64,000 nt of DNA, taken from assembly GCA_963924565.1 (NCBI GenBank), contig OZ004613.1:25234001-25298000 (forward strand). The letters are read 5' to 3'. Shown piece after piece: positions 32,513 through 61,857 of the stretch (its first letter is position 1; each line of letters starts with the position of its first letter). The position numbers were made by a program, and so were the translations under genes. Source of the DNA: Ascidiella aspersa (taxonomy: Eukaryota). Below the pieces are notes generated by a model. The model ran no database searches, had not been told where the DNA came from, and saw only the letters and a list, made by a program, of their open reading frames with translations.

Positions 32513-35500
32513 CTACAACCTTGATTTACGGGTTAGAGCTTCTCTAGCAAGCCTGGTGACCTCCAATGCACAGCCCCAGTGCTGGGCAATCCCCTTGGCT
32601 CCGTGTCCGTAGTTGTGAACAACCGGCATCAACTTCGCGCCGTTTCGCGAATCCGAACTTATCCGAACCAGTTCGGTCTCGATTCGGGCGCCTCCGATTC
32701 GTCCCGGTCTGATGCCCACGTCCGTGTAGCGCTCCACAGCATCTTCTGACCGCGGGTAGAGGGTCTTGCACTTGTGCCAAATGTGCTCGGAGTCTCTGGG
32801 ATCTACATGGGTGTCAAAACGCCCCACCTGGTACACCCCACCGATTAGTACGTCATCATTTCTCGGTGCCATAACTGTATCTTCAGCCAAGTAGACCTTG
32901 TCGATAAAGGGTGCGTCCACGCTGATGTATTGGCCTAAAAACCACATTTTTTACCGGTAAACATTAAACAAGTTTGAAGGAATTAAAAAAAGAAAAATGT
33001 ATGCCAAAGGTTAGTGGTGATTTAGGTAGTTGAAAAATACAATAGTTATTGACGTTTCTCCAAGGGTATTATAAATTACTTTTACATTTAATACAGAAAA
33101 TTAGCAATTACAAATAATTATTGTACAGTAGTTTAATTTTTTACCTTTGTTAGGCAGTTTTTAACGCAAACCTGAAAACAAAACTGAGAAAAAAATCTAA
33201 TATTTGTAAAAATTCACCTCTGACAGGAACCACGTTTCGATCAGAGGTCAATGACCCGGCTCCGGCTCCTGTGCAGTTCACCACAAGGTCATACGAATTT
33301 CCCAGCTGCTGAAATGACGTCACTTCTTGATTGATAAACGTCACGAAAGCCTCACCGTTCCTATTGGCCACCGATACACAAATTAGTCAATATTTGAAAT
33401 TGATGCTAGAATGAAAAATGCACGATTGTTCATAATATAGTAAAGCTCTGCGTTAAAAACCTTTAAATTAATTGAAAATTAGTATCTCTGTCCCTTGTTG
33501 CGTAAAGAGATTTTGCGAGCCATGAGAGAATTCAATTGATGAACAAACACAGCAAAAAATAAATATCGATTTTTATTTTTCAGCCGAATACAGTTTTACC
33601 ATTGACCTAATGTAATTAGATTTTTTATTTATATTGCTTAGGAACGCATTTCTAGGTAATAAAGAAAACAAAATTGAGTAGGCTTGGCAATTGTTTTCGC
33701 AGCGGCAATTTCATATGTATATATATATAAAAGCTACGTTACACATCCGTGCATAGTGTACCCAAGTATATATTTATATATATATACTATCAAATTAAGG
33801 AAAATCACAACAAATACAATCATTTAAACCAGTGGTTCTCAACCTTTTTTGCTTACGGACTGGTAGAATTTCAAAACAAATTTCGCGGACCGGTGGACCT
33901 TCAAAACTTAAAATCTACCCAAAATGTAATTACGACAAAAGTATGTAACTTAAAAGCATAAATGGAAACTTTAATTGAATGAGCAATTTGCTACTGTCTT
34001 TTAGATATTATACGTGTTGTACAGGGTTCTATTAAAGTTTTCCGCATAAAACTGGTCTTAAAGTTTACGACTTGAACGAGTTTGTACTCCTAAACAATTA
34101 GGCACAAAACTTGCAGCATTGTGACATACGATAAAGTCAAAAGTAGACCATTAACTCTATGTTACGTAACAATGTTGCGGATTACGTAACTGGCGAAGTT
34201 CTAAATTTGACATTTTGAAATTGAGATACAAAATTGTAATATATTTGGCGGACCGGCAGGAAAGTTGACGCGGACCGGTGCCACTGATTTGAACCATTGG
34301 TCATCAAACATTTTTTTATAAAGGGGCTGGCTCGGAATTGCATTAGACAACTTCTTTACCTGACCTTTATTTTCAATAAGGAAATATGCCACGCGCCGTA
34401 CTTTGGTGACCCCTGTCCCCTGGTAAACCATATATTGCAATCCTTTGTGTAGCTTAATACCTTTTCTTCTTTCGCCTCAGGTTTTCCATAAGCCAAGGCA
34501 GGTATTTGCTGGTGTTAATCACATAGCAGGGTGCGACGTAGCCGGTAACAGAACCGTTTCCCAACGAGCCGAAAATTAACAATCCGGCGCCCTCTTCCGA
34601 CAGGTGACTGAACTCCTGCATTTCCCGCATGGTGGCGCTCCTGTATCCTAAGGCTTGTCGATGTTTCGGCGGAACTTTTAAAATGGTAACAAAGCGCTGC
34701 TACAATTGTTAAAATTATATTGCATTCAAAGGCAAACGTAAAGAGAAATGTTAAGGGAATTAGCATTTCTGGTTGAATAGTAAATGTATCGCAAGACCAA
34801 TCAGAGGCCAACTGAAAATGTGGAGGTCTCGCCGTACAACTTATAGAATGGTATCGTTCCAAAATTTTATTTAAATCAAATGCATTTGTATGACACTTAA
34901 GTATACAGTTATACAAAACAGGAAAGCCAAATTTCCATGTAGATTTTTCTCAAGATTTAATGCAAAATAGTCGTTAACATTTATTGTCACTGTATAGTTT
35001 TAGACAACAAGCATCTTGAAATTAAACCGACGAAGAAAATTGCTATGCTGATTTCACATCATGGTGAACTACTGGTAAATGTTTAATCAAAGGGGCGTGT
35101 TACCACCAAGGTGGCTGATTAATTATTAGCCAACTTTCATAGTCAAGCGCAAGAATATTATGCGGACATGAACTAACTGTTAAAGAGCATAATAATTTTC
35201 AATTCTAAATTAGAACTTTCTTTCCAATAACAGAATCTACCTGAATATTAATGGTGAAAAACAAACCATTCGGTTGCACATCAATGATAAAAATTAAACA
35301 AAGTAGAGAACTTTATAAACCAAAATTCTATTTGTTTGGATGTTATAATATGATATATTTATTTCGCTACTAAAGAATCTTTTTCAAATCTTGTCTTTAT
35401 TTGTCGCCGATAAATTTACGTTTTAAGTGTAATGGTTGTCATACACTATTGCAAACAAAATATATTACAAATCGTATGCCCCGGTTTTGTAAAATGAAAT

Positions 35501-36552
35501 AACCTTCATGTCTAGTAAAAGATAATAATCTTTGACGTATAAGTAAACCTGTCTCATGAACCAACAAAAAGAACGCTTACTTACGTTTCGCATCTATGAC
35601 TTCTTGTGACGTGTTAAAAAGCACGATGGCATCCCTGTGACGTAATCCGGCGTTCTCGGCCTCGGTCGGGTGAACTTGGGAACAATAGGCCTGGGTGGCC
35701 ACCACGTGGTCGTTGGCATTGGGGGCGTCGAGTGGACCCACACCCCCGTTGATCACAATTCCGAACCCGTGTGTGCTGCACAAAGTGTAAAGGGATGTTA
35801 CCGTGTTACTGTTCCTTTGGTACTAATCTGGAAGAGTTTACCAAATATTGGGCTTCGTAGAAATAAACATTTTACATTTTCAGCACCTTTTCTTTTACAA
35901 ATCTTTATTTGGTGAAACTTCCGAGATTGAACCAGCTTGATATAGATTAGCTTACTTCATCGTGTGGCACCTAGAATCACCGCTTTTTTGTATTACCACA
36001 AAAGTATGACAATGTGTACCAATTTCTGTTCAAATATGCTATAAAGTAGGCTACATTAAGAGAAATCGTTGTCCACCCTACATGGCTTTTCGGTAACGTG
36101 ATACCGCTGTTAGACATTAGTAAACAGTACGATACAGGCATGTGTCAACATTTGGAAGTTTAACACTCACCACATTAATTTCCAGACTGCAGGCCTATAG
36201 CTTTGCTACTTAACTTTTACAGCCATTCGACTTACAAACCTATGTTACTTTTAATATTCAATTTTTCTGTTAACATTCAGTGTTATTTTTAATACATTAT
36301 AAAAAAGTAGAAATATTCTGATGAGTTTTTCCCTTTATTTCTCGCACAAATTTTGTAACAAACTTTTTTAACATTAATGTAATTCAAGCGGACTACAGGT
36401 CTATTGGCTTTTTACCTGCAGACATTTTTTCTGCTCGGAAAAAATTCCAGAGCAATCACATCGACGCTGCTGTTAGGAAATTGTTCAGTCAGACATAACG
36501 CTGAAGCAAGGCCTTGAATTCCAGCGCCGATTACAGCAATTGAAAACGACAT
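32513..36552 (-). CDS. D-amino-acid/D-aspartate oxidase-family flavoprotein, paralogue 1 (368 aa, PTS1 SRL)
   Basis: Exons 36552-36416, 35775-35585, 34674-34461, 33360-33218 and 32934-32513. Motifs are AVIGAGIQGL (FAD-binding GxGxxG), VVNCTG, PVRGQ, GIRPGR, HNYGHGAKG..HWGCA and C-terminal SRL. Confidence 0.92.
33830..34286. mobile_element. hAT MITE in intron 3 of DAO-like 1
   Basis: TSD atttaaac/atttgaac. The empty site is visible in paralogue 2 at ~41478-41485. Confidence 0.9.
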
Positions 36553-37101
36553 ACCTAAACAAATCAGTCTAGCCTACACGACAAAGCAGCTGTTTTTTTG
36601 TAGTACAATTGACACTCGTAACTGTTAATTTTTTTGCTGAACCATGTGGCAGTTGCATATTACATTTTTTTTTATAAATCGTCAACACCTATTTGACTGG
36701 TAAATACACATTTCGGTGCAAAGAAAAATGTAACGGTTTTGGGGTATTTTGATGTCGCTCAATTCGAAAATAATAAAGCAAGACCAGGTTAGAAAAACAA
36801 CTAGCCTGTGATGATTTCAAATAGTATATTTAAGTTTAAACAACTTGATTTGATAGCTGCAATCTAAATACACCTTTGCTTCAAGCACATTTGCTAATCG
36901 ATGTGTAAACTTCGATTACTAACTATTCAGTTTGCTTCGCATCGCTGCCCCACTCTCTGCAATTGGTATCGAAGTCTAGGAGAAAAGTTGCATATATTTT
37001 CTTTCTAATGTTTTGCAGCTAGCCTCTCTTGTCCAGCATTTGGTAAACAAGGTAAGGACCCTCTGCATTTAGCTTTGTGATACTGGACGATCACGCTAGA
37101 A

Positions 37102-37878
37102 CAGTGGTTCTTAACCGGGGGGGCGTGCCCCCATAGGAGGGCGCCAAGCAATTCTTAGGGTGGGCGCGAGCTCTACTTCAATATTTCAATTTTTGCAATG
37201 ATTTTTATGGTTTCGTTTGGGTTAGAGACCACTCCTACAGCTGTGTTAACTCTTTTTTTCAACTTTAACATTGAAACTGTAAAAAATTTTAGCGCTACGT
37301 GCGAATCGGGCTTTTTAACACGAAGTCTCTTTGAGTCCCATTAAATATTTTCATATCATCGAAGGTATAACGGCCCTATTTAAATACAATTTTTTTAACT
37401 TATAGATAAACGATATAAGTTATAACCCTCTTTTCCGTGTTTTATCTATGATAACAGGCTACTACAGTGGGACTCGAAGTTTTTGCGCAAATCTATAATG
37501 TTTTTGCAATATTTGCCGTTGTATTGTTTAAACACGATAACGCAATGTTTTAATTTTTGCGCTAGGAATTTTTTTTTGCTCTCGACATCACAGCCTTACA
37601 ACTGTGGAGTCACAACACGTTTGTCAAAATCAGCTCGATAAAAATCAATGTGTCGTGCACGAGCACTTTGTTGCGTGCCCAATGCGAAATGCCGTTTCAA
37701 TTACAGTTTAACCAATTCTACTAAATAAACTGAATTTTTTTCGCGACCAACAATACATTTACCTAATTTCTCAATAGTGTTTAATTGAAAAATGCCGAAG
37801 TGCTTTTCGTAGGGGTGGCGCAAGGCATGAGAAAATTGTCGAAGGGGGGCGCGGCTAAAAAAAGGTTAAGAACCACTG
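37102..37878. mobile_element. hAT non-autonomous element (777 bp)
   Basis: TIR cagtggttcttaacc and TSD cgctagaa/cactagaa. The empty site cacgctagaaggttaagg is in the duplicate at ~44498-44515. Confidence 0.92.
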
Positions 37879-40082
37879 CACTAGAAGGTTAAGGTATCGG
37901 TAATCAAAAATAAACCAAGTTGTACTGTTGCATAAAACCAGCTCCAATGCTGTCAAGCTTTAGAGAAAATATTACACTATCAAGCCTTACTTTGATTTGG
38001 TAGTGTAAAATTTTTAACAGCACTGCTTTTTGTAAAGGTCTGTTTTTGCAAACGCTGTTCGAAAGTGACCAAGTGACTCTTTTCAAATTTACTCAAAAAA
38101 CACTTCTGTATTTCACAAATACACGCTAAATCTACAACAGTGGGTTGTAAAATGGTGATAACTTATAACTTAATAAGTTTTTTAGAAGTGCATTTCGTCG
38201 CATCCAGTGTATGGACAAATACGAAACGACGCTTCTGTGTGACAATTTAAACCCGTATGAGGTGAAAGTTCTTGTGTGGAAAAACAGTATTTAATAGGTT
38301 ATAAATATATGTATGTCGTAAACCTAAAAGTCATAAAACTCGTGCGTATTATTTAACACTGTGTTGTGCCTACATTTCTTTTAAAGCGCTATTTTTTTGG
38401 CTTGTGGCACCCTATAAAAATTATAAATACTTTGCGGCACCCTTGCTCGTATTTTTGCTGACTGGTTTTCTGTAACGTTACAATAAACGAGAAGAAACAG
38501 CTCATTAACTGGGAAACAATGCTAAAAAACCTATTTTTTTTATTTTTGGCACTTTTATCGTAAGCAAAAATCTGAATCCTAAAGATGTACATTGTAGAAG
38601 TGCATCCGGTTCACGGGCCGTAGGGTACTGAACCCTGGCTTTTGACTGAGATTTCCTGTGAGATAAAAGTTGCCATGGCCTATCATATTAATATCCAGTA
38701 TCATCGGTAGAGTGCCGCAACATGTATTAGGAATACGAATGTTACCGGATTTCGCTAAAGATGACAGTGCGTGCGCCTAACCTGCACTACGAAAAAAGTG
38801 GAAATAGTGGTTACGCACTTTCTTATTTAAATTCGAGGGGACCCTTGGGTGGTTATTTGGAACAGCTTCAGTTTAAGTATGCTTCGGCAACCCGATAAAT
38901 TGAGGAATGTCCGAAACATGAGATCTCATTTCGATACTGAAACGCAATACTTTGCAAAGAATGTATGGCCGCCAATCTGATGCCTAATGTCCGATCGAGC
39001 ATCGTGTCCGATCTAATTTTATCGGACATCGCTTCAGTCGTCAGCTATCGAGACCGGTCTGTCGCTCTTGCACTATTCTTGGGCCGTTTAACGCAATAAG
39101 ATGGTGGTCTCTGCGGTAGGTTCATGATGGTGTTTTAGTTGAGTTTAAATCCTTCAAAATGTTATTGGTACATTTGCCAACACATTTGAATTTGAATTGC
39201 GATTCAAACCAAAAATTTCCTTAGTACAGAAAATATTCCACATTCTAGCCACGTGGCTCGGATTATAGATGGTCATACATTGTACATCGAAGCGTTGTTC
39301 GACTCTTTAGATCAAACTATAGTTAATATGGCATGAATACAATTAGTTGTAGACCAAGTTCAAAGCAAAAGACCGTGCAGCCTACGATAAACTCCTCGTT
39401 TAATAACTTTAGTGAAGGCTGCCATGTCCGGCTGGTTTAATTTATCGGCCGCGCAATATTTTAAGTATTTCGCGAAGATCCTAAAATACGGTTATTAACA
39501 CCTTTGTAACCGAAATATAGACACGCTCAGCATGTCCAAAATAAATTAGGCAAAAATCACGCAACATTGTGTAATTCATATACACAACCTGAATATATTT
39601 TAAAATTATTGTAAAATAGACGCAAGATGACGAATGCAGAAACTACATCAAAGTCAAAAACGAATCAAAATGCACATAAATCGTTTACAAAATTAAAAAA
39701 AAATTTAGTCAGCTTTTTGAAATTGATCGTTCAGTTTTTTTTTAATTTATCGTTCAATCTAAACAAAAATGTTTGATTTATATTCAAAGTCATTTTAACC
39801 GTATTATATCTTCATAAGAGCAATATACGGTGTAAAAAAAGAGTTAATAACGACACCTAGGTTATTTAAATCAATATACTTCTAGCAGGTCAAAATTTTG
39901 TCAAAATAAATTATTTTTAGGTCAGAATTTGTCAAAATTTTAACTTTTCAGGTCAAAATTTCTTAATTTTTTGGTTAAAAAATTATCGCCCTAGTAATAA
40001 GTAATTATGTTTAATGTCAATTAGCCTAAGAGCTCTATGTTAAGATATTTCCACAGACTTTAGTTACACCCGGCCATTCTTT

Positions 40083-43000
40083 CTACAACCTTGATTTACG
40101 GGTTAGAGCTTCTCTAGCAAGCCTGGTGACCTCCAATGCACAGCCCCAGTGCTGGGCAATCCCCTTGGCCCCGTGCCCGTAGTTGTGAACAACCGGCATC
40201 AACTTCGCGCCGTTTCGCGAATCCGAACTTATCCGAACCAGTTCGGTCTCGATTCGCGCGCCTCCGATTCGTCCCGGTCTGATGCCCACGTCCGTGTAGC
40301 GCTCCACAGCATCTTCTGACCGCGGGTAGAGGGTCTTGCACTTGTGCCAAATGTGCTCGGAGTCTCTGGGATCCACGTGGGTGTCAAAACGCCCCACCTG
40401 GTACACCCCACCTATGGCTACGTCATCATTTCTTGGTGCCAAGACCGTTTCTTCAGCCAAGTAGACCTTGTCGATAAAGGGTGCGTCCACACTGATGTAT
40501 TGGCCTATAAACACATTTTTTACCGGTAAACATTAAAGATGTTTGAAGGAATTAAAAAACGAAAAATGTAGCCAAAGGTTAGTGATGATTTAGGTAGTTA
40601 AAAATACAATAGTTATTGACGTTTTTCCAAGGGAATTATAAATTACTTTTACATTTAATACAGAAAATTAGCAATTACAAATAATTATTGTACAGTACTT
40701 TTTTTTACCTTTATTTTTTTTATTTTTTACCTTTGTTAGGCAGTTTTTAACGCAAACCTGAAAACAAAACTGAGAAAAAAATCTAATATTTGTAAAAAAT
40801 CACCTCTGACAGGAACCACGTTTCGATCAGAGGTCAATGACCCGGCTCCGGCTCCTGTGCAGTTCACCACAAGGTCATACGAATTTCCCAGCTGCTGAAA
40901 TGACGTCACTTCTTGATTAAAAAACGTCACGAAAGCCTCACCGTTCCTATTGGCCACCGATACAAAAATTATACAAGATTAAAAATTGATGTTACAATGA
41001 CACCATACTGTAAGAAACAGATAAAACACATTCTGTGCGAATGAAAGGGAATTTTACAGTCGATCACTTTAAAAGGCGACGAACATTTGTTAAGAGTATG
41101 AACATACGTTCACCGGAAGAAGCAATATTGATATTAATATAGTAAAGTCCTTCGGTATACACCTTTAAATTCGATCAGCAGACCACTATCTCCATACGCT
41201 CTTGCTTTAAAGGGGATATATTTCGTGACATGAAAGCATTGAATTGTTAATTGAACAAATACAGCAAAAAAATATATCGAGTGTTATAGTTCAGCCGAAT
41301 ACAGTTTTAGACCATTGACCTAGTGTAATTAGCTTTTCTATTTGTATTGCTTGGAAACGCATTTCTAGACAATAAAGAAAACAAATTGAGTAGGCTTGGC
41401 GTATGTTTTTAAACCGGCAATTCGATATATATATATATATTTATGTCAAATTAAGAAAAATCAAAACCAATACAATCATTTAAACCAGGGGCCATTAAAC
41501 TTTTTATAAAGGGGCTGGCTCGGAATTGCATTGGACAACTTCTTTACCTGACCTTTATTTTCATCAAAGAAATATGCCACGGGCCATACTTTGGTGACCC
41601 CTGTCCCCTGGTAAACCATATATTGCAATCATTTGTGTAGCTTATCACCTTTTCTTCTTTCGCCTCAGTTTTTCCATAAGCCAAGGCAGGTATTTGCTGG
41701 TGTCAATCACATAGCAGGGTGCGACGTAGCCGGTAATAGAGCCGTTTCCCAACGAGCCGAAAACCAACAGTATGGCGCCCTCTTCCGACAAGTGACTAAA
41801 CTCCTGCATTTCCCGCATGGTGGCGCTCCTGTATCCCAACGCTTGTCGATGTTTCGGGGGCACTTTTTAAAGGGTACAACAAGCGCTGTCACAAATGTTA
41901 AAGTTGTATTGCTTTTCAAGGTAAATGTAAAGATAAATATAAAGGGAATCAACATGCATTGTTTAAATCGTAAATATATTGTAAGCCAATTCAGTGGCCA
42001 ACTGTGTTTTCTTCGATAATGTGAGGTTCTAGTCTTACAAGTTATAAAATGGTATAGTTCCAAAATTTGATTTAGATCAAATGCATTTGTATGAAACTTG
42101 AGTATACAGTTATACAAAACAGGAAAGCTAAATTTCCATGTAGATTTTTCTCAAGATTTAATGCAAAACAGTCGTTAAAATTTATTGTCACTGTATAGTT
42201 TTAGACAACAAACATCTTGGAATTGAACCGACGAAGTAAATTACTATGTTGATTTCATATCACGGTTTAATCAAAGGGGTGTGTCACCACCAAGATGGCT
42301 GATTAATTATTACCCAACTTTCATAGTCAAGTTCAAGAAGCTTATTCACATGAACTGTCTGTCAAATCGCACAATAAAAAGAGGAAAATAATTTTCAATT
42401 CTTAATCAGAATTTTCTTTTCAATAACAGAATATGTCCTAATCAGAATTGTGAAAAACAAATAATTCGGTTACACATCAATGATAAAAATTAAAAAAGTA
42501 AACGAAAAATCTGTTTGTTTGGACGTTATAATATGATAACTATATTTCGCTACCAAAGAATCTTTTTTAAATCTTGTCTTTATCTTCCGCCAATAAATTT
42601 ACGATTTTAATGATTGTCATACACTATTGCAAACAAAATATATTACAAAACGTGTGCCTCCGATTTAGTAAAATGAAATAATCTTCACGTCTAGTAAAAT
42701 ATAATAATCTTTCACGTATAGGTAAACCTGTTTCATGAACCAACAAAAAGAACGCTTACTAACGTTTCGCATCTATGACTTCTTGTGACGTGTTAAAAAG
42801 CACGATGGCGTCCCTGTGACGTAATCCGGCGGCCTCGGCCTCAGTCGGGTGGACACGGGAACACCAGGCCTGGGTTTCCACCACGTGGTCGTTGGCATTG
42901 GGGGCGTCGAGTGGACCCACACCCCTGTTAATCACAATTCCGAACCCGTGTGTGCTGCAAAAAGTGTAAAGGGCTGTTACCATGTTACCGTGTTTTTTCG

Positions 43001-45891: not shown

Positions 45892-48800
45892 CTACAGCCT
45901 TGATTTAGATTTCAACGCCTCGGCAGCAAGCTTAGCCACCTCCAATGCACAGCCCCAGTGTTGGGCAATTCCCTTTCCCCCGTGCCCGTAGTTGTGGACA
46001 ACCGGCATCAACTTCGCGCCGTTTCGCGAATCCGAACTTATCCGAACCAGTTCGGTCTCGATTCGCGCGCCTCCGATTCGTCCCGGTCTGATGCCCACGT
46101 CCGAGTAGCGCTCCACAGCGCTTTTTACAGGCGGATAAAGAGTCTCGCATCGATGCCTCATTTGCTTGCTGTCTATGGGGTCCACTTCGGTGTCGAAACG
46201 TCCAACTTGGTAAACGCTACCCAAAAGCACGCAGTCATTTCTGGGAACTATCATCGTCTCGTTCGCAATGTAAACCTTCTCCACGGAAGGGGCGACAGCG
46301 CTGATGTATTGTCCTGCAATTGCACTTCAAATCTCTCCAATGTTTTGGTTGTCGAACTTTTTTAGCTTTCGGCACACAAAACAATACAATACATTCGCGG
46401 CACATACTTTCTAAACAATAAATACTTTGATATCTCCTTTATTTCACGGCAAGAAAATTGGTAAATATTCTATAATAATCTCGGTTTTTAAATGAAATGG
46501 GAATTCTAAACTCGTATGCTTTCTTGTGTTCCCGTTTGTGATAATTGCATGACTTGGCTGCAAGAATAGACGAATGGTTAACTTTAAAAAGTACAAAACG
46601 TTTCGCGCCCAACTTTTTATTTACCCAGTTTAAGAAAAGCAGTTTTAAACTTTACCCAGGTTTAATTCTAAAATTCATGACTTGGCTGCAAGAATAGATT
46701 ACAAAGATATTACCTCGAATAGGAACCAACTTTCTATCAGAGGTCAAAGTTCGGGCGCCGACCCCGGAACAGTTCACCACCAGGTCATACGAACTGCTCA
46801 GCTGATGGAATGACGTCACTGTTTTCGTATGAAACGTCACCGCGGGTTCGCCGTTTCTTTGCGATCAAGATGCATTTTACTACAGTTACCGGTGTATATT
46901 ATTCAAAATCATTAGTAAACTATTAGTATTTATCCGAAAACTAGTCTCTTGCAGGATCGAGTTTAAATTTGCATTTACACTAATTAGCGTTTTGCATGGT
47001 TCGAAATGTCGAACACATAGCTATTATACCACCGTAAAAAAACGCGTTGTTTTCACTTAGATTAGATAAACAGAGACGGTGTGGCATTTTCGTTATGTTA
47101 TTGAAAAAGATCTTTTAAGTCATTTTATTGCTGAAGGGTCGGTCAAGTTTAAACCAACTGCTGATTTACGACAGAGGAGCTCTGAAACAATGGAACAGCA
47201 GATAAAAAATCCTATAATCTCTGAAATCACCTTTTTGCTTTCCTTCTAAGTTTTTCCATAAGCCATGGCAAGTATTTGCTGGTGTTTATCACAAATGAAC
47301 TTGAACTGTAACCTGTCAACGAGCCGTCACCTGAAGAACCAAAAACTACCAACTGGGCGTTCTCGTCCAACAAATGTTTGAACTCTTCGATTTCCCGCGT
47401 GGTGGCGCTCCTCACCCCAAATGCTTCACGTTGCTTAAGGGACACTTTGAAAAACATATAGCCTGAGGTATTAAGCTATGAAAATCTGCAGCATTTCATG
47501 TTTAAAACTAGCTAAAATGTGTATACCGTGTACATGTCTTAATTTATTGAGAGCAGCGGTTCCCAAACTTGCGTACGGGGACCAAATGGGGTCCGTACAG
47601 CAGTTTCAGAGGGTCCGCAATGAGAATTAGTCTTAAAGCTTTAAAACATTACGCTTAAGGGAATGCTACGTTTGTCATCTTTATTAGTCTTTAGTTATAC
47701 TTTGCTTTCGATTATATAGCGTGTTTTATAATGTCGCTTGTGACATCATGAATCATTTATTATGATGTAGCCTACTATACCTGCTATCAGCGAATCGTTC
47801 GCATAAGTTAAAAAGTTGTTACATTAGAAAAAATCGTGACTGCACTAGTGTATTAAATAGACATGGGTCAACTGACCCTTGAATTTGTATACGACCACGA
47901 AATATCAAAATAATTGCAAAGGGTCCACCAGCCAAAACTTTTTAGAAAGTGCTGAAACCGCTGCTCTAGAGTGTAGAGCAGGGGAACCCTGAATGGCACG
48001 TTTTTGTGATTCACGACTCAAATAATAGTATAATATGTAACAAAAACCAATGCCTATGGAAATAAAAAGTCCTATTGAAAACAAATATATCCAAAATTAT
48101 TTCGTCTTGGTACCCTTCCATTAAAAACGACTTTAACCAACCCTAATTATTCTGCGGGCCCGCATACTACACAACTAGTGGTCTAATACAAATTCGTCTC
48201 CATTGGCTGATTTTCTCTATTCTTTTAAGAGCAGAGTTTAAGTAAAGTTATAAAACTCACAATAGAGCGTCTCTCTACGTGTTCCTAACGGTGTTTGGAA
48301 AACAACTTTTATAAAGAAAGTTCAGTACAATGCGAGCAAAAACATGGTTTATACATTCTTGAGTCTGTCAACAGGCTGAAAATTTTTATATATACATGCC
48401 TTCTGTCTCAATTGCGAGTCCTTATTTGATGGAACTACAACTATTTTTGGTATAAAAGCTATAGTCGTGCGAGAGAAGATTTGAGAGAAATCGAACAGAG
48501 CAAAAATTAAAGCCGTTGAAACAAAACTTTATGTTATAATACTTTTGCATGTTTTTTTAAACGCATACGTAGAATTATGTTGTACAACAGTTGTTTTCAA
48601 CTGTGTGAGTGGTAACCTATGCAATTATCCGAGTTGTAACCTTCACAAGCTGCCTTTCATGTTTTCTGAGAAAAATAATATTCAAGTGTAATACAAGGTA
48701 CTGTTTTTATCAAGACAATTGGTTTTTATGTTTTTTGATCAAGGATGTTGACCAGAAATCCACTTCTATATAAAGGAATAGAATTGCACGCAAATCACAT

Positions 48801-50955
48801 TGTATTAACAAGAGCTGGGGAGTCGTAGCCGGACTCTAGACATGATAAAGTCGAATTTTTGGCCGGAATCGAACTCAGGACGCGAGTAGTATTACGCATG
48901 CTCAGTTCGAAATTTCGTAACTGTGAAGACTGCATGTAACAGTGTTGTAATGACAAGTCATTTACTTAAGTGTACTTAAATCACTGTTTACAAAAGGAAC
49001 TATTTTTGGCAAAATAATTTGCCTTTGCTTTCGGACAAATTACCTAACTTTAGTCACTTGGGCACATGATAGAGTTAAAATAACGAATTTTTATTAAATT
49101 CGGTTAGATATGTTAATTTTTCAATTTAAAACAATTTTCTTGCTATATATTGCATTCATGGCATTTGTACTGGAGTTATTGCTCTTTTAACACTTTAACA
49201 GTTCAACGTTTAATTTTTATGACAAACACTTGACTGGGAGTTGCCTTACGTAACCGATGACTTGGACTTGGACTGGGACTTGACTTTGACTATAGTTATT
49301 TTACGAATGACTTGTTTATAACACTGATAACTACCTTGCTTTAGTTACGTACATTAGTGAAATGAAGGAGTCCGACTCTGGACTCGACGAAATCGCACAT
49401 TTAACATGAGTCAGACTCTGGTTCATTTTGTTGTCCGAAGTCTGATTCGGGTTATCTTTAACTCCCCGGCCTTGGTATTAACCATAACCAACCTTACATT
49501 GTGAGTCTATAGTTTCTTGTGACGTATTGAAAAAGAAAATCATGTCACAATGACGTATTCCGGCAACTTCGGCTTCGGCTGGATGGATTTGGGAACACCA
49601 AGCCTTGGTGGCTACCACGTGGTCGTTAATATTGGCTGCGTCGAAGTGCCCCTGTCCTTTGTTAATAACGATACCGTATCCATGTACACTGTGTGGATAT
49701 AATAAACAGCACAATTGTAAATAAATCTTTTTGAAATGACTTAAGACCCACTCAGGTCATTCTCAGCAGCGGCGTAGCCAGAAATCCAAAAATGGTAGGC
49801 TCCCGAATGTTCAACCGAGTGAATTCCCCTATTTTCCGTCTGACGTTAATGAATAATGACGTAATAAAATAGTTGCAGGTATGACGTCATAAACAGGAAA
49901 AAACTAATCACCAATTAACGTCTAGCAAAAGTGAACCTTAAGACGTAAAGCGAACACGTGGTTCGTCGACACTCTTGCCAGGTGCCAGCTGCGAAACAGC
50001 TTAGTGTGCAATCGTTAACTTCTGATAAAAAATTATACCAAACGGAAAAAAATGTTTTTTCCGGTGGTTATTATGCCATGATCGTACCACCGGTGCCGAG
50101 CTGTGTGCCAAGTCAGCTAATATACCAGCTGTGGTTGAGGGAAAATAATTTGCGAAGTTCACACTAATAAGTCCACACTAATCACGTAGTTTCAGAAAAA
50201 GATTACAGAAAATAATTTTGCGGTAACTATCATTACATAAAAATGGCGAGTTTAAAACGCACATGCCGTTGTTACACCAACATCGGAAAAACGTGGAACA
50301 TTAAGTGTGCCTGAACTCGACGTTTTTAAAGAGTTTTGTGTTGAATTTTGGTTTCATATTAGCTTAACATGCGTGACCCAATTACATTAAAAACATTGTC
50401 AGTTATTAAGTTAAACAAAGCATGACAATAACGATCAAAAACAAGAATATTACTTACAAAAAAAGAGGGCGGAAGGGGATTGTGGCGGTTGTCAACAGGC
50501 AACAGCGGTAGGGATACACGACTCGACTACATGCTAAAGTAACGCTTAATATTCTATTTTTTGGGAAACACATAGTGTAGCACACAACTATATGTTAATG
50601 CAGCGCGTCGAAAGCGTCTAAGATTTATAACACGAGTCACAGATGATCCGTGACCTGCATTTATCTATTAATTATCGCTCACCAGTTTCCAATACTTTTT
50701 CAAAGCGGAATTAAACATGTTTCCCTGTAGTTTGCAAGCAGAAATTCACTAATCATGTTTAAGAAAAACATTTGCTTATTTGTTTGCAAGTCACCTAACA
50801 TTTAATCACTCGACTAACCTGCAAAGGTTATTCCTCGAAGGAAAAAATTCCGAAGCAATCACGGTGACGTCACTATTCGGAAACTGTTCAGTCAGGCATA
50901 ACGCCGACGACAGACCTTGAACACCTGCGCCGATCACAGCAATCGAAAACGCCAT
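45892..50955 (-). CDS. DAO/DDO-family flavoprotein, paralogue 3 (most divergent; 368 aa, SRL)
   Basis: Exons 50955-50819, 49688-49498, 47444-47231, 46856-46714 and 46313-45892. Motifs GAGVQG, VVNCSG, PIRGQ and HNYGHGGKG. Confidence 0.92.
47554..47963. mobile_element. hAT MITE (family of 1141-1585, opposite orientation)
   Basis: Termini cagcggttcccaaac...aaaccgctg. The internal sequence is the reverse complement of 8613-9071. Confidence 0.8.
48810..49474. mobile_element. gagtcg-family element with a nested aagtc-family element (48940-49326)
   Basis: Outer direct repeat gtattaac and ends ggggagt/actcccc. Inner termini cagtgtt...aacactg. Confidence 0.75.
49767..50125 (+). mobile_element. Interspersed repeat, family of 1-436
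   Basis: Colinear similarity to the reverse complement of 1-436. Confidence 0.65.
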
Positions 50956-52369
50956 ATTTTTTGCAAATGCAATAAACTTATTTGAAATTAACAACCTGAC
51001 AAAAATGTTGTCACATGAAATCCACATGTAAAAAGCATATTATGTCTATAGTCGCTCCAACAATTCACCTTACTTTAAACCTATAAAGATTATAATCTAA
51101 AGGTTTATTGAGTCAAGCTAAACTTAGTATTTGTTGCCATATGCGTCTAAACTCCCATATTTTTCTGTACAAAGCCTACTTTTCTGTACAAAGCCTACTT
51201 TAATAAACTGGGCGAACGTCAAACGCTTCACCAGCTCATTAAAGTCATATTTCAGTACTCACCATACAGCTCACGTTTAGGATGTTTTTATTATAAATTA
51301 CACAATGCCGCATTTGCACGAAGCTGACAATACTACTGGGAAAAATATTTTGTTTAGTTGTTGCTACTGTTCTAAAAGTGTCGGCGGCGCACCATTTGTT
51401 TGAAAACATATTTGGATTGTCATTTGTACGAAAAACTAGTAAGTCCAAGTCATTTTGCCCAAAAGACTTGAGCAACGTCAAGTAATTTAAAAACAGGTAC
51501 TTAAGTGCACTTAATACTTAAATCATTCCAGTCATTGATTTAAGTCATTACAATATTGGTTGGAACTATTTTAAACATTAAGCCTTACTTGAAAATATAT
51601 ATTACATATAATTACATAACATTTAAATCAAGCTTTTTTCTATAGCATTTTGGGTTTTTCTTTAACAATAATTTTAGAAGGATTTCTATAGTAGGGATGT
51701 TCAAAGTAGAATATTAGGTTTCGAATATCCACAATCAGAGATAAAACAGCAAATCAGTAGCTTTACTTACGGTTACAATAATATTTAACAACAACAAAAC
51801 CGAAAAGTAAAGTATCTAACCCGTCCGAATAATGAACAGCGAGCAACTGCTGATTTTGACAAAAATGTGAGCACTTTAATAACAAAAAACAGATGTCGGT
51901 GATAAATAATATCGTAGAAACAAGAGAAACATGAAAAACAACACAGAAAATGTCTACAACCAGGCAATTGACAAATCGTGTTAAGCAGTATGCTGCTTGA
52001 ATACAGTAATGCACACAGCCAAGCAGCTGGGCGTCACAAACGGCCAGGCTGTTGATCACATTGTACCTACTATGCAGAAATAGATACCTAAAAAGCAAAC
52101 CAAAATTAGTGCAAAATCCTAACTGGCAACCCTTCTGTTGCAACTTAACGTATTTAGTGAGATTGCGAACTCTGCACCTGGAATTACATCATCTAGTCGC
52201 TCGCACATTAACACTCATGATAAGCCAAAGGTTAATTATCGACAAGTAATAGGTCACCTTTAAGCACTGTAAATGTGTTTCATATATTGTTTTTTATTGT
52301 GACGCCATATACTCCTTTGATGAAAGAATCGTGCTTGCAAATCAATCTGGGCTATCATCATTTGGTCTG

Positions 52370-52384
52370 AATAAATGCGCCGGA

Positions 52385-52416
<32 letters not shown>
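52370..52416 (+). repeat. AATAAA followed by an A29 tract; possible 3' end of a retroposed sequence
   Basis: aataaa at 52370-52375 and a poly(A) run at 52388-52416. No TSD was found. Confidence 0.4.
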
Positions 52417-52419
<3 letters not shown>

Positions 52420-53219
52420 AGGGCGTTTTTGTTAAATATGTACAAAATGCTTACTTTTCAGTAAGCCTTGCAACCTGCCACGACCGCTTTCTCCACTTTA
52501 TATCCCCTTATTTACTACACATAGTAGCAAATTTTCGGGTGTTATTCAATTAAGGTGTTATTCCGACTGGTTGGACTTAATTTTCGGTCTTATGACTGGT
52601 GTCCATGAAATGAAAAAAACTTTGGTCAGCAAAAAGGTGCCGTATCCAAGTCCAACATGTGAGTTCGTTTCAAACTATAGTCTTTCTAGGCAGTTACGTT
52701 TTTCTCTTTCCATTGCTTTTTAAAACCATTAAAACAGTACAGTGCAAGAGAACCATTATTTTGAACCTTTAAAACACTGCAAGAGGTTCGCAGGAAAAAA
52801 TATATTTGTACAATGTTTCGTATCTGTATGACACGATTTTTGACTCCATGCCAATTTATTTGAAATCTGAATAATCTAAAGAATTGGCAAAAGCACAAGC
52901 TCACTAGCTCATGTTACCACAAATATAAAACAAAACTCGTATATACAAATGTGTAAATTGTGCAGGGTTGGGCATATATTTACAGCGGGCCGCATGAGAA
53001 AAACAAAACAAAAAAACGTTCTGGTGGACTGGGTCAAATATAGAGTTTCGAATACACGCAGTATTACGTTTACTGTCACGCTATAAAAACGTATGTTTAA
53101 TAAACATGTTATTACGTTCGAAGTTGTGAGCAAATGCGCACCTGAAGTCTAATTTAAAAAGGCGATTACGCGTCAAGCAAAGCGTTGCACAGAGAACACG
53201 GTCAAAAGGTCCCTTAGGG

Positions 53220-53445
53220 CAGTGTTTCTTAAACAGGTGAATGGTTCATCCCAGGGTGAATGAAATTTTGCAGGGGTGAACCCACCAAAAGGGGCATATA
53301 AGGGTGAACCGTCAGAAATCAATTATAGTAATTTGTGCTGTTATATATACACGAGATAGTTTTGTCATATCATGAGACAAGGGTGAATAAAATCTGGAGA
53401 TAGATGCTAGGGGTGAACATAACTAAAAAAGTTTAGGAAACACTG
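53220..53445. mobile_element. hAT MITE
   Basis: TIR cagtgtttcttaaac/gtttaggaaacactg, TSD ccttaggg/tcttaggg and internal gggtgaa repeats. Confidence 0.88.
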
Positions 53446-54275
53446 TCTTAGGGCACATCCAAACTTACGATGCGTTTAACAACGGAGGACTTGTTGCAGA
53501 TGGGATCCTTACGATACAATGGTCATATTACAAAGACGGAATAAATCGGACGCAACACATAAAATGTTTAACAAAATACATTGGAAAAAAGGCTGCAATA
53601 CTAAGTTTGTTCATAAGAAGTCCATTTTAACTCCATTTGATCGAAGCGCGAAAAATGCTTTCATAATTGCAAAGTTTGACAAACTGAGTGCCTACATAGG
53701 TGCTATTTGTCTGTAAAGATGCCAATACCAGAGCTCGAAACATACGATAAAGGCATGAAAGATTCGCGTGAAGCGATATTTATTTTAGTATTCAAAACAA
53801 ACAAATAAATGGGGTTTGGCTGGGTCATGACCGAATCCATCCTTTAAATATATATACGTTACCACCAAACGTATAAAACGTTTCTTGTTTTTACTTACGT
53901 GTCTTACTGGCTTCATGGCAAACATTTTTCTGAAACAACAGACAGGGATATATATAGTTGGTGTGTTATCAAACGCCGAAAATACTGAAAAAGTATTTTA
54001 AGGAAAATACGAAAAGGTCGGATTGAATTCCTTGGCGGGCCATGTTTTGGCCAGTTCAAGAAGAGTTTATATTTTCATTATAAAGTTAACGAACACAACC
54101 AGGCGATTGTTGAGCACATTCACGAAATACAATAAGCGGTGACAGTTTAAAAAGCATAAGAGCAAAAAGTTTTCGGTGTGGCGTTCTCACCAAATGGATA
54201 CAAGAAGAGCATGGTTAATTCACGCAGTGTATGTTGCATTTCACCACCTTTCAATAACAAAAGTATACTCTAGAA

Positions 54276-55295
54276 CAGTGCTCCGCAACCGGTGTGCCGT
54301 GAGACCATGTCAGGTGTGCCGCGACGTTACCGTATGTGTGTTAACTTGCGTTTTTTAATTGTACTTTGTACAGCAGATTTTAACGAAAATGATGCAAGGC
54401 AGACATTTTAACTCTATGCAATAATCAATGTAAATTTTCCTTAATATATAAAACTATGACCTTTCAACCGCCGGAAGTCAAATTTTAAAACATCTTTCTA
54501 ACTAACTCATTAACAGGAGTATAAATTTTCAGCAAATGATTTCTAACCATGATATAACTAAAACTAAAATCTTCGAAAAAAATGGCTAAACCTGTCGGAA
54601 TCTACCTAAAGTTGATGGGAATAAGGCCTTAATTGACAGTAATGACTAAAAATGTAACGATGGAATGTGGAATGATCGGGGTTCATCAGTTTGACATTGG
54701 ATGTCAACGTTTCGGCGTTCTACTTTGAATAGCGATTACGGCGCTGTTAAGTCGCCGCTGTTTTAACATTGGGTTGTTTCCCCTGTTTGGGGTAAGTGGT
54801 GGGTAGTGAGTGGGATTAAATATTAAGTTAGGGTTGAGATTGAGGAGTTAGTGATGAATTTAGGGGTAGGGTTTGAGGTTATGTAATAGGTTGTATAGGG
54901 CTTATTTCGAAATTTAGGTCTAATTTCGACAGGTCAGGATTTATTCCGATTTAGACGATAGTATACGACTATTAGGTATTAGTCCTATTTTGGTCTTATT
55001 CCGAACTGTGTTTTAGTTCGACGTTGATGTTGTTTTAATTTCGGTCTTATGGCTGAAGTCCTTTTGGCCGTCTTAAGATATTTTAAAAGACCGTAAAACC
55101 GTAAATTCAGAAGATAAGAGAATGTAAAACGTCAAATTTTCGGTGCGTTAATCGTAAATTGCACATTATTCTCTGAGCAGCCTGCTATTATGCTTTTGTT
55201 GTCTATTGTCAATCGTCATATATTTCGTAGGTGTGCCTTCAATTTTGTTTACCTGTGTTGGTGTGCCTCAAGTGAAAAAAGGTTGCGGAGCACTG
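54276..55295. mobile_element. hAT non-autonomous element (1020 bp) carrying a nested repeat (~54545-55061)
   Basis: Perfect 15-bp TIR cagtgctccgcaacc and perfect TSD ctctagaa. A related decayed copy lies at ~18130-18790. Confidence 0.9.
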
Positions 55296-55655
55296 CTCTA
55301 GAACCCGCACCCACCACCTATGTAACGTTTATGTAAAACTCTGTGCTAAATCATTTTGGTACCAAATTGAACTATTTGAAATCGATCTGTCCGTTTTACG
55401 GTTTAACGAGAGATTGTTTACTGAAGTTAAAGATGAAAATGGCAGCAAACAGCACGAGGCAATAAACAGAAATAGTACCAACTTAACAGCAAATAATTTA
55501 GTAATTCGGCTGACACCAATCCATTTGCGTCACCGTTTTAGGTGACCAATGATTTAAACGGTAATATTATGAATTTAGGGCCAATGTCAATAAGATTGAA
55601 AGCAGCTTTTATTTGCTATTTTCCTTTGATTTTAAGGAAAGCTGGAACATTCTCT

Positions 55656-58600
55656 CTACAACCTTGATTTACGGGTTAGAGCCTCTCTGGAAAGCCTAAC
55701 CACCTCCAATGCACAGCCCCAGTGCTGGGCAATCCCCTTGGCTCCGTGTCCGTAGTTATGAACAACCGGCAATAACTTCGCGCCGCTTCGCGAATCCGAA
55801 CTTATCCGAACTAGCTCGGTCTCGATTCGCGCGCCTCCGATTCGACACGGTCTGATGCCCACGTCCGTGTAGCGCTCCACAGCATCTTCTGACCGAGGGT
55901 AGAGGGTCTTGCATTTGTGACGAATGTGCTCGGTGTCTTTGGGGTCCACGTGGGTGTCAAAACGCCCCACCTGGTACACCCCACCGATTAGTACGTCATC
56001 ATTTCTCGGTGCCATGACTGTTTCTGCAGCCAAGTAGACCTTGTCAATGAAGGGAGCGTCCACGCTGATGTATTGGCCTATAAACGTCAGTTTTACTTTG
56101 AAATATTAAATATGATTGTAGTCATTTGGCAAAAACATTTTGTATGTCAATATTTTTTTTATATTTTGTCAAAGAAAAACGTTTAGTCGTCCACATAAAG
56201 TTTTTTAATTGTCTCCGAAAATGAAAATTAGTATCTATTCTAGAGGCAGTTTTCAACGCCTTTTATGAGCTTTTAATAACTAAATATTTATACATTACCA
56301 GTATTGTTCTGTTTTGGCCAAAGACATTTCTGTTAAAAAACATTCCTGTCAAAAACATTACAAATAAACAATCAAAAAAACATTAATAAAAACAAGTTTC
56401 AAAGAAAACAAATTTTAACGATGCATGAATTCTATACATATAGCCGTTGAAATCTCAAACATAAACACAAAACCGCCACCCTAGAAAAAAACTGACAATA
56501 AAATATAAATCTGGTATGGCCTAAAGTAACCTCTGACAGGAATCATCTTTCGATCAGAGGTCAACGACCCGGCTCCAGCTCCTGTGCAGTTCACAACTAG
56601 GTCATATGAATGCCCCAGCTGATTGATTGAGGTCACTTCTCGTTCGACAAATGTCACAGCTGGTCCACCGCTCCTGTTTGCAAACGATATATCAGACGTG
56701 TTTTACCGAATATTATATTTCTTCATTTGTAAAATTCAGTTTCAATAAAGCCTAACATATTCTCTTCGACAAAAGAGGATACAGCTGATTGTATAAACCA
56801 GGGGTGGGCAACCTACGGCCTGCCGGTCAGACCCGGCCCGCCAACGCTAATCATGCGGCCCGCGAAACTAATTATAAACTGGGCACGAAGCCATTCCTCA
56901 TATTTTTATGGCAGTTTCAACTAATTAGAAGCAACTTTTTTGTTTTTAAGTTAGCAAAACTGTAATTATATAAGGCCTTGATACTGTCGATGATAGGTGT
57001 ATTACAAATAGACAGAAATCATGCAATGGCACTTTGAAAATACTTTGTGCTCAAAAGGGATTAGAAAAATTTTTCAGTTTTATTCCTAAAGTTGGCAAAA
57101 AACTAAGTTTGTACAGCTGTGGAGTGGTGCCCAACTCAAAACGAAACCATTAAAATCATTGCTAAAAATTTAAATATTGAAGTAGAGCTCGCGCCCATGT
57201 GCTTTTCTTATAGCAATGAAGCAATGTTGTTTATTGAAAAATCAAGTCGTGAGCCACCAATATGATTTCAGAAAAAAAAATAAACCACTTCACCGTTATT
57301 TTAATGCCAACGCACTTATATAATCAACAGTGTTTTGTTATAGCTTGTATGGTTCTAAACTCCGCGTGGCAGCAAACAAAACATCATAACTTAGCTTTAA
57401 TAAGTGAATAGAACTGTTGTTGTAACATACTCTCGCAAACCAAAAGCAAGAACACAACAAAATATGCAATTAGCTTCGAGGGTATTTCTCAACTTTGCCA
57501 ACCGATCGAACTTTATTTTTAGTTTACCACATTTTCACAAGCTCTAAAGTAGTTAAATTACCTATATTATGTTTTCAAAGACATTCAAATTTAAATAGCA
57601 AACATCCAGACTGATGGACTAACTGGACGACAACAAAATATATATTTAGATATAATTCAATAATGAATGCATTGCAGCCGTTTTTTGTAGCTTATTACCT
57701 TTTCTTCTTTCGTCTCAGCTTTTCCATAAGCCAAGGCAGGTATTTGCTGGTGTCAATCACATAGCAGGGTGCGACGTAGCCGGTAATAGAGCCGTTTCCC
57801 AACGAGCCGAAAACCAACAGTCTGGCGCCCTCTTCCGTCAGATGACTAAACTCCTGCATTTCCCGCATGGTGGCGCTTCTGCATCCCAACGCTTGTCGAT
57901 GTTTCGGGGGAACTTTTTTAAGGGTACAACAAGCATTTTAAACAGACAGTAGAGAAATGCTTTGAAGCAGAAAACATATAAATATTTTGATTAACATTAA
58001 ACAAGCAGTAGGGGAATATTAATTAAAATCGTTTAATTGTATTGTTGTTAAATCAGAGTCGGCAAACTTTTTTGTCGCGGCCCAAAGTAGTCTTTTCAGA
58101 GCTATTGAAGGCCCACTACGTAAAACTACTACGAAAACAGCGTCGAATTTAAGATATTTTTTTTTTAATGGCATAGTGCAAAAGCACACTTTAAAAGAAT
58201 ATACGCGCGAAGCAGGACATTTTTGTCAATTACTTACAGTTAAAGTTGGCAAAAAATATAGTTCGACAGGCTCTCAAGACCACATTTGGCACGTGGGTCT
58301 GAACCACACTGAAACCATATAAAAATACCATATAAAAATAAATATAAAAATACAGTCTACCACAAAGTGCAATGAATGTAGCCCGCAGCTATCAGACGGC
58401 CCGTAAATATTCAATAACACTAAACTATTCAAAAGTAACTCGCGGCCCAACAAAAATGGCTCTGCGCGCCACATTTAGGCCGCGGCCCTCAGTTTTTCGA
58501 TAGGTGGTAAACTTATTCGTGGAAGCATAACTAAAGAACGCTTACTTACGTTTCGCATCTATGATATCTTGTGACGTGTTAAAAAGCAAGATGGCGTCCC

Positions 58601-59460
58601 TGTGACGTAATCCGGCGGCCTCAGGCTCGGTTAAATAAACTCGGGAACACCAGGCCTGAGTGGCCACCACGTGGTCGTTGGTATTGGGGGCGTCGAATTT
58701 ACCGAGACCCCTGTTGGTCACAACTCCGAAGCCGTGTGCGCTGAAATTGAATCGGTTTTAAACGAATATTTTTTGTAACCCAAGATGTTCACACAACCGC
58801 TCTTCAATACGATAAATGTGAACCCAATTATTGTTTGCCGTGCGATTTGGCGTAGAAAGGTGCCACGTGCCAGTGTGTTGGTGGCCAACGGAATATAAGG
58901 CTGAAGTTAGTCTTGCTGTAGATAATCATTAAAATGTGATAGCTATATTATATTAGAAATCTATTTGAACCACATGTGGCCACCATGTCTAAAAAGTGGT
59001 TAAAACTAACGAAACGACGGTAATTTTGGTGCCAACGGCGTGTTATTCGTGAAATCCCCCAGGTTAACTATTTAATATATTGTAGCTAAAGGTCAATTGC
59101 GTATTTTGGACAATCGTTGTTGTCTTTGATAGATTTTCCAACTTATAACTCAAAAAATACCTCTTGTGCAACCCCTTTTTCTTGGTGCACCCCCATATTT
59201 TTGCCAACTATGAACTCACAAATAATTGTTACTTGAATTCGCTTTTTATTTCCCGCCCATAGTTTGTGATGTCGCGCATTTTTCAGTACTACGATGCACA
59301 CAAGATAACTAAAGCGTATTTACCTGCAGACATTTTTCTTGCTCGGAAAAAATTCCAACGCTATCACATCGACGCTGCTGTCAGGAAATTGTTCAGTCAG
59401 GCATAACGCTGAAGCAAGGCCTTGAATTCCAGCTCCGATTACAGCAATTGAAAACGACAT
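55656..59460 (-). CDS. DAO/DDO-family flavoprotein, paralogue 4 (368 aa, SRL)
   Basis: Exons 59460-59324, 58740-58550, 57912-57699, 56673-56531 and 56077-55656, with the same sizes as the other three. Reads GIRPCR instead of GIRPGR. Confidence 0.92.
58053..58506. mobile_element. hAT-like MITE; inverted partial copy at ~62365-62640
   Basis: The terminus cagagtcggcaaactttttg is the reverse complement of aaaagtttgccgaccactg, which ends at 62640. The internal gaccacatttggca is shared. Confidence 0.65.
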
Positions 59461-61508: not shown

Positions 61509-61718
61509 ATGGCTGATCTGCAAGCATATGTTGCGGAACAAAAGGGTAAAAGTAAATCCATAGCTTCGGACAGCGAGTCAGACTCTGCCAGCCTTTTGTC
61601 ATGGATGCCGTCATCAGTTAACATAACAATGCCAAATGTGTTCAGTAAAGAGCCCAGTGAAAAGAAAGAGTCGACGTGGTTTAGCGAAGCAAAAAGCGAT
61701 CCTATGTGCCCTGCCTTG
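61509..61718 (+). CDS. SFT2D3: Vesicle transport protein SFT2C-like, first coding exon (rest beyond the window)
   Basis: MADLQAYVAEQKG...WFSEAKSDPMCPAL followed by a gtaagt donor at 61719 (210 nt, phase 0). It resembles the N-terminus that precedes the L(S/T)xxQR Got1/Sft2 domain, recognised from memory. Confidence 0.7.
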
Positions 61719-61857
61719 GTAAGTTTGCTAGACAAATAATCATACAATTTGGTAATATTTTCCGGATGTTGTCGTTCTTAAATATAATCGTGTTACAACC
61801 ACTAAAGAGTGTGCACAAATTTATTGTTTGCTGCAGCTAACCAACAACAAATAATTC

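Follow-up and report, generated by a model that had tools for sequence, protein, structure and literature searches.

What do the flavin-dependent oxidases encoded by a gene array in the sea squirt Ascidiella aspersa oxidize? A stretch of 64,000 nucleotides from contig OZ004613.1 (assembly GCA_963924565.1, positions 25,234,001 to 25,298,000; hereafter the window) contains four genes, which we will call A to D, that belong to the family of D-amino acid oxidase (DAO) and D-aspartate oxidase (DDO). The substrate pocket of the encoded proteins has been rebuilt, and a preliminary description of the DNA proposed that they act on something other than the classical substrates. We tentatively favor a different reading: A to D would be peroxisomal D-α-amino-acid oxidases that release H2O2, probably from acidic or N-substituted substrates such as D-aspartate, D-glutamate, or N-methyl-D-aspartate (NMDA).

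Four genes and their relatives

All four genes are on the minus strand (coordinates are those of the window):

36552-32513, minus strand: gene A, 368 amino acids; exons 36552-36416, 35775-35585, 34674-34461, 33360-33218, 32934-32513
43843-40083, minus strand: gene B, 368 amino acids; exons 43843-43707, 42954-42764, 41862-41649, 40946-40804, 40504-40083
50955-45892, minus strand: gene C, 368 amino acids; exons 50955-50819, 49688-49498, 47444-47231, 46856-46714, 46313-45892
59460-55656, minus strand: gene D, 368 amino acids; exons 59460-59324, 58740-58550, 57912-57699, 56673-56531, 56077-55656

Each gene has five exons (137, 191, 214, 143, and 422 nucleotides) separated by four GT-AG introns at matching positions, and each coding sequence (1107 nucleotides) has zero internal stop codons, so the preliminary count of four complete genes holds. 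The models rest on the GT-AG signals, the equal exon sizes, and homology, because no splice joint is listed from the RNA run X7, of which 6% was read. Those reads do include 2–4 at sites in exons 1, 2, 4, and 5 of gene B, all oriented as a minus-strand transcript predicts and with A-specific letters in exon 1. The signal is weak in the bins of gene D, and it is 0–0.03 in three bins that contain exons 1, 4, and 5 of gene C. No fifth copy or fragment was found within the window by tblastn.

All four proteins end in -SRL, a type 1 peroxisomal targeting signal (PTS1), and are predicted to be peroxisomal. They also retain the motifs for binding flavin adenine dinucleotide (FAD) and the arginine of the GIRP motif, as first described. 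The other motifs that had been quoted are present as written: (V/I/L)CS(T/V/A)HG(F/Y)G; DTVMAP, ETVLAP, ETMIVP, and ETVMAP; and GHGAKG in three copies with GHGGKG in the other. Exon 5 of A (41.8 bits) and of C (38.3 bits) pass the cut-off for PF01266 (27.9 bits). A and B are 95% identical at the amino acid level, A and D are 87% identical, and B and D are 88% identical. Gene C is 69–72% identical to the others and is the most diverged copy (HGYG, Met249, GHGGKG). The ratio of nonsynonymous to synonymous rates (dN/dS) is 0.21–0.31 between copies, with p<1e-7 in 6/6 pairs. The four copies are under purifying selection, which had been suspected from their intact reading frames.

Among the matches listed, the closest relatives are ascidian proteins that were automatically named "D-aspartate oxidase-like." They are from Phallusia (two full-length proteins and two fragments; A0A6F9DA25, CAB3236655.1), Ciona intestinalis (XP_002123458), C. 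savignyi (a fragment), Clavelina (two proteins; XP_076818292.1 and XP_076807078.1), and Styela (XP_039273198), and there is one unnamed Logan fragment (P0168). The window proteins share with them the S-x-H-G-F/Y-G motif (HGFG in the relatives), the absence of Tyr228 (pig DAO numbering), mostly basic residues at the active-site gate, an insert of about 17 residues, and their position in a phylogenetic tree. The Ciona model (P0011) has an 18-residue insertion at the position of intron 1.

The tree was inferred with IQ-TREE in quick mode from 76 of 255 aligned rows (4 from the window, 42 labelled, and 30 further top matches), with support from the Shimodaira-Hasegawa-like approximate likelihood ratio test (SH-aLRT) only. 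A branch of length 0.58 (SH-aLRT 99) separates the 14 rows of the ascidian clade from the other rows. Within the clade, the window genes are sister to a Phallusia protein, P0013 (SH-aLRT 99), which is their closest full-length relative at 52–53% identity. They fall outside the vertebrate DAO clade (SH-aLRT 100). This separate clade agrees with the early view that the genes are neither classical DAO nor classical DDO.

The clade appears to be a subfamily that is found, in this analysis, only in sea squirts. Because its changes are common to Phallusia, Ciona, Clavelina, and Styela, they were not made at this locus, and the preliminary link between the rebuilding and a lineage expansion here does not stand. 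Instead, the HG(F/Y)G-type rebuilding is old, spanning ascidian orders, and the array is a recent local expansion. We saw 1–3 copies in most of the four other genera, compared with 3–4 tandem copies in A. aspersa; duplications recur in Phallusia, Clavelina, and A. aspersa. No NCBIfam model matched any of 6 clade proteins above its curated cut-off, an Atlas search returned DAO-family clusters only, and our literature search, mainly of freely readable papers, found no study on ascidian DAO or DDO. The clade's proteins carry automatic names only and are apparently an uncharacterized variant of a known enzyme family.

We predicted the structure of P0013 (predicted local distance difference test score, pLDDT, 92.6). 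The model matches human DAO, pig DAO, and human DDO with Z of 39–41 and a root-mean-square deviation (rmsd) of about 2 Å over 311–329 residues; Z is 31 for glycine oxidase and 28 for dimethylglycine oxidase (DMGO). On this model, the window proteins should have the two-domain fold of DAO. The likeness to mammalian DAO (pig 1KIF and human 2DU8, Z 40–41) extends to the FAD motifs, Arg283, and HNYGHG..G...HWGCA. With human DDO (6RKF; Z 40.7, rmsd 2.0 Å, 329 residues), the window proteins share Arg278, a short lid, PTS1, and, in principle, a cationic entrance. But they are only about 33–35% identical to vertebrate DDOs.

The rebuilt active site and its probable substrates

To assign equivalent residues, the window proteins were aligned with pig DAO (P0073) and koala DDO (P0020):

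35769..35771, minus strand: His48 codon of A (B 42950-42948, C 49684-49682, D 58736-58734); pig DAO Val47 column
35763..35765, minus strand: Phe50 codon of A (Tyr in C); pig DAO Ala49 column, the si-face residue beside flavin N5
42924..42926, minus strand: Arg56 codon of B (Lys in C, Arg in D, Gly in A); DAO Tyr55 / DDO His54 column, at the active-site entrance
32873..32875, minus strand: Val249 codon of A (Met in C); DAO Tyr228 / DDO Tyr223 column
32708..32710, minus strand: Arg304 codon of A (Arg in 4/4 genes); DAO Arg283 / DDO Arg278 column
32594..32596, minus strand: Lys342 codon of A (Lys in 4/4 genes); DAO Tyr314 column

To separate ordinary from unusual substitutions, we compared the clade with 347 other family members of 290–420 amino acids, after removing eleven isoform or cluster duplicates; lengths were counted on the first 241. 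Several features that had seemed telling are ordinary. The DAO lid was described as missing, and it is indeed short (the segment R203-P231 has 21 residues, 8 fewer than the 29 of classical DAO), but a lid of 23 residues or less, which is DDO-like or shorter, occurs in 109/241 others. The two DDO arginines are absent as described (Leu or Ile at the 216 column and Tyr at the 237 column), but only 50 and 91 of the 347 others have Arg there. Similarly, the change of GHGG to GHGAKG is present in three copies, but 40/347 others have Ala at the Gly313 column. And 137/241 others have a PTS1-like C-terminal tripeptide. We rejected all four features as distinctive.

Other changes are rare or absent outside the clade, and the preliminary description was right that the surroundings of the active site have been rebuilt. 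Where DAO has VAAG and the clade has HG(F/Y)G, His is at the Val47 column in 11/12 clade rows and in 0/347 others, Gly is at the Ala48 column in 12/12 rows and in 0/347 others, and Phe or Tyr is at the Ala49 column in 12/12 rows and in 3/347 others (all Phe). The proper alignment also confirms that the carboxylate-binding tyrosine has become Val or Met in the window proteins. Tyr228 is lost in 12/12 clade rows; 293/347 others have Tyr, and 23/347 have Val, Ile, Met, Leu, or Phe. At column 230, Ala, Cys, or Val is present in 12/12 clade rows (Ile230 of mammalian DAO is Ala or Val in the window genes), and the pocket is larger at both columns. At the gate, Arg or Lys is at the Tyr55 column in 10/12 rows (10/347 others) and at the Tyr314 column in 9/11 rows (5/347 others), and just 1/347 others has a basic residue at both. 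The segment before the YLPW motif has 46–50 residues in the clade and 30 in pig DAO, and it reaches at least 43 in 3/241 others. Three of these features were absent from the preliminary description: the position of His48 in a column that carries covalent FAD in other enzymes, the basic gate at 55 and 314, and the insert of about 17 residues. By contrast with all of these, the Arg283 column is conserved, with Arg in 10/11 of the clade rows that cover it and in 345/347 others.

In DAO, the α-carboxylate of the substrate is bound by Arg283 and Tyr228, and residues 47–51 pack against the flavin's si face (PMC6279847, PMC5715370). The loss of Tyr228 can be tolerated: the Y228L variant of pig DAO still oxidizes D-Phe (kcat/Km 0.215 versus 1.04; PMC6174955), and Y228A and G313A are active on D-Met, D-Phe, and D-Pro as well as D-Tyr (PMC6003678). 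Because Arg283 is kept and these variants are still active, D-amino-acid chemistry is the default. In our proposal, Arg304 would hold the α-carboxylate and N5 of FAD would take the hydride from C-α, as in DAO, while the HG(F/Y)G loop on the si face would retune the flavin.

What would differ is access to the active site. Entry to the active site of mammalian DAO is gated by Tyr55, Tyr224, Tyr228, and Tyr314 (PMC6003678). All four tyrosines are gone from the window genes, which have in their place Arg56, a gap, Val249, and Lys342, respectively. This exchange would make the pocket more spacious and its mouth cationic. Human DDO has a cationic entrance as well, made of His54, Arg216, and Arg237, that attracts D-Asp (PMC8260693). 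The window proteins would have reached a different solution: Arg56 occupies the His54 column (Arg, Lys, or Gly among the four genes), while Arg216, Arg237, and Tyr223 are missing. A cationic gate and a larger pocket should suit acidic or N-substituted D-amino acids. Ciona contains both D-Asp and NMDA, with NMDA at 13.8 nmol/g in the ganglion (PMC2241627).

Several observations weigh against this proposal. Arg216 is described as "fundamental" for the selection of D-Asp by human DDO (PMC8260693), and the clade has hydrophobic residues at this column. The Arg that is usual for the clade at position 56 is Gly in gene A, and the 314 column holds Thr or Ile in two rows from Phallusia. Four of the rows in the clade's counts are the window genes themselves, which are not independent. 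Residue positions were taken from alignment columns rather than from distances in a model. With SH-aLRT of 80–85, the backbone of the tree supports orthology to neither DAO nor DDO in particular. Finally, the Phe or Tyr at the Ala49 column could hinder the oxygen half-reaction.

Alternatively, the clade might be a fast-evolving but functionally ordinary DAO that accepts a broad range of neutral and bulky substrates (D-Ser, D-Ala, D-Phe, D-Met) and may be the sole DAO or DDO of ascidians; its peculiarities would be tolerated drift that was fixed early. We consider this a less probable but serious contender. The tolerance of pig DAO for changes at Tyr228 and Gly313 (PMC6174955, PMC6003678) fits this idea, and a Ciona racemase makes D-serine (PMC8916719, in whose available text "oxidase" does not appear). 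Also, no canonical ascidian DAO or DDO is named among the best 120 of 319 matches, and a query with a hemichordate family member gave no named ascidian among its best 120 of 772 matches. However, the substitutions persist in four genera and are almost without parallel in the family (His47 and Gly48 in 0/347 others and both basic gate residues in 1/347), and drift would not be expected to keep them.

The preliminary description had suggested, besides an unusual amino or imino acid, an amine or a secondary metabolite as the substrate; in this version, the proteins would be neofunctionalized oxidases whose substrate lacks an α-carboxylate. Positions 228 and 230, where the pocket is larger, are also those that were engineered to turn pig DAO into an amine oxidase (Y228L/R283G, or I230A/C/V with R283G; PMC6174955), so the clade has natural substitutions like the engineered ones, and the recurring duplications would also fit a new function. 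But in pig DAO, amine activity appears only with R283G, and Y228L with Arg283 present has none (PMC6174955). Arg304 is kept in 4/4 window genes, within a tract that has been homogenized between copies (see below). Because the arginine is kept and Y228L lacks amine activity, amine oxidation is unlikely for A to D.

The natural look-alike of the engineered variants is instead in Clavelina: XP_076818292.1 (P0003/P0009) has Ala at the Arg283 column, Val228, and Val230. Of the clade rows that cover this column, it is the only one without the arginine, and on these residues it would be the clade's best natural candidate for an amine oxidase.

His48 and the flavin

The His of the clade's HG(F/Y)G loop raises the question of how FAD is held. 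Bacterial proteins that were retrieved with a motif of dimethylglycine dehydrogenase (DMGDH) align with DMGDH of human and rat and with DMGO; the motif's His corresponds to chain position 64 in 5L46 and to position 48 in 1PJ5. In profile-profile alignments (probabilities of 94% and 98%), His48 of the clade falls without a gap on the His of STWHAAG in DMGDH, which corresponds to His48 (STSHAPG) in DMGO. We take His48 of DMGO to be its FAD attachment site. In DMGDH, N3 of His91 forms an 8-α link to FAD, and links of this kind increase the redox potential (PMC5082570); from the offset of the construct, we infer that chain position 64 of 5L46 is this His91. Human DAO and DDO are listed with plain FAD, and are not among the six covalent human flavoenzymes that are named in the available text of PMC3684772.

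Could His48 form an 8-α-histidyl link as well? It is possible, but we are doubtful. A His at this position is no proof of a link: P0168 has Ala there, and the Lys or Arg of 40/347 others shows that polar residues are tolerated. P0168 has NAGYG instead of xHGFG, keeping the Gly-aromatic-Gly but not the His, which makes it a natural control for the idea. Fungal DAO presumably has Trp at this column, and L-2-hydroxyglutarate dehydrogenase presumably has His. For the latter enzyme, the available text of PMC10726252 describes only hydrogen bonds and hydrophobic contacts with the flavin, and "covalent" occurs 0 times. We also considered the covalent His of the fumarate reductase type, but rejected it: it lies five columns earlier (in a weak alignment, E 0.18).

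If the link does form, then the clade might be a covalently flavinylated oxidase with a raised potential that acts on N-methyl amino acids, such as sarcosine, dimethylglycine, proline, or betaine-like compounds, with the chemistry of DMGO having converged on a DAO scaffold. The gap-free match of His48, its presence in all but one clade row, and the higher potential conferred by the DMGDH link (PMC5082570) are consistent with this. Against it, the fold has a far stronger match in DAO and DDO (Z 41) than it has in DMGO (Z 28), and the window proteins are only about 16–18% identical to DMGDH and DMGO (5L46, 1PJ5), which have about 830–870 amino acids and a C-terminal folate domain that the window proteins (368 amino acids) lack. 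Together with the variation at the His48 column, this makes such an enzyme rather unlikely. A broader combination has about the same modest chance as the covalent link itself: a convergent, covalently flavinylated oxidase of the DAO/DDO type, whose cationic gate would admit acidic or N-methylated D-amino acids and of which one Clavelina paralog might be a natural amine oxidase.

The aromatic residue at the Ala49 column suggests another possibility, that it blocks O2 and that the reduced flavin passes its electrons to some other acceptor, so that the proteins are poor oxidases or are dehydrogenases. All 12 clade rows have Phe or Tyr there, and G52V at this column reportedly cuts the O2 reactivity of yeast DAO. 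In DMGDH and DMGO, a si-face residue (Ala and Pro, respectively) is tied to oxygen reactivity (PMC5082570), and our alignment would put it in the same column. But because the contact of the DAO residue with N5 is through the main chain (PMC6279847, PMC5715370), the side chain may point away from the flavin. Furthermore, PTS1 is kept, which fits a producer of H2O2. We think that a poor oxidase is quite improbable, and our proposal remains an H2O2-releasing oxidase of D-amino acids.

Copy number, neighboring genes, and significance

The array arose by recent local duplication, probably with gene conversion; two features bear on this:

~30591-38529 and 38584-45120 (span 30591-45120), no strand assigned: two adjacent head-to-tail units holding A and B, by self-blastn
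45998..46103, minus strand: 106-nucleotide tract of exon 5 of C that is identical to B (40294-40189) and spans the Arg304 codon, by third-position identity

The A and B units are about 7–8 kb each, and their non-coding parts are 77–95% alike (self-blastn). Genes B and C are otherwise 74% identical, but around the 106-nucleotide tract 47/50 third positions agree, compared with 164/318 elsewhere. Because 106 identical bases lie amid such high local third-position identity, the tract is likely due to recent gene conversion. A short direct repeat (29889-30236; about 150 bases, 75% alike) lies downstream of gene A.

Gene B may not be a fixed locus. We mapped four read runs on 39800-59700, which contains B, C, and D. 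Read depth was low, and the variant table gives 40 of 878 rows, those with the best support, a choice that favors high-frequency differences. Of its 34 sites in the B interval, the reads have A's letter at 26 and neither letter at 6, and 2 are unaligned. In an independent DNA run, X6, every read has A's letter at 12 B-diagnostic sites (4–13 reads each). The depth of X6 is 3.9–8.4 in five non-repeat bins of B (picked by eye) and 5.0–6.7 in six bins of C and D, so its depth over B is near single-copy. Reads of other individuals carry A's letters at many B-diagnostic sites. Thus, the species is not fixed for the letters of B, and this gene may represent a copy-number variant of A or its second haplotype, left unpurged. 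For this reason, three of the loci are firm and the fourth is less so.

The window also contains a second tandem array and the start of another gene:

2186-3106, plus strand: SGNH/PC-esterase/NXPE-like gene
9897-10754, plus strand: SGNH/PC-esterase/NXPE-like gene
15428-16285, minus strand: SGNH/PC-esterase/NXPE-like gene
24225-25190, minus strand: SGNH/PC-esterase/NXPE-like gene
near 7123-7488, 12696-13073, 20163-20528, and 27576-27851: upstream exons of SGNH/PC-esterase/NXPE-like genes
61509-61736, plus strand: first exon of a gene whose product starts with MADLQAYVAEQ

The four SGNH/PC-esterase/NXPE-like genes have GDSL and DGTH motifs and a long last exon, and their DNA is 77–93% alike. They have no Pfam match above the cut-off. 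Their Atlas neighbors are unnamed algal clusters (score 0.94–0.96), in some of which 12–16% of members have PC-Esterase or NXPE4_C. The gene at 61509-61736 presumably resembles an SFT2-type vesicle transport protein; its exon has no Pfam or NCBIfam match above the cut-off.

Human DAO holds its FAD weakly, with a Kd of 8 µM, and covalent FAD would be of applied interest for that reason. If His48 does form a covalent link, then a DAO scaffold that acquired covalent FAD in nature would offer a clean way to test how covalent flavinylation evolves. And if this clade is the sole DAO/DDO of ascidians, then its specificity would set how signals end in these animals.

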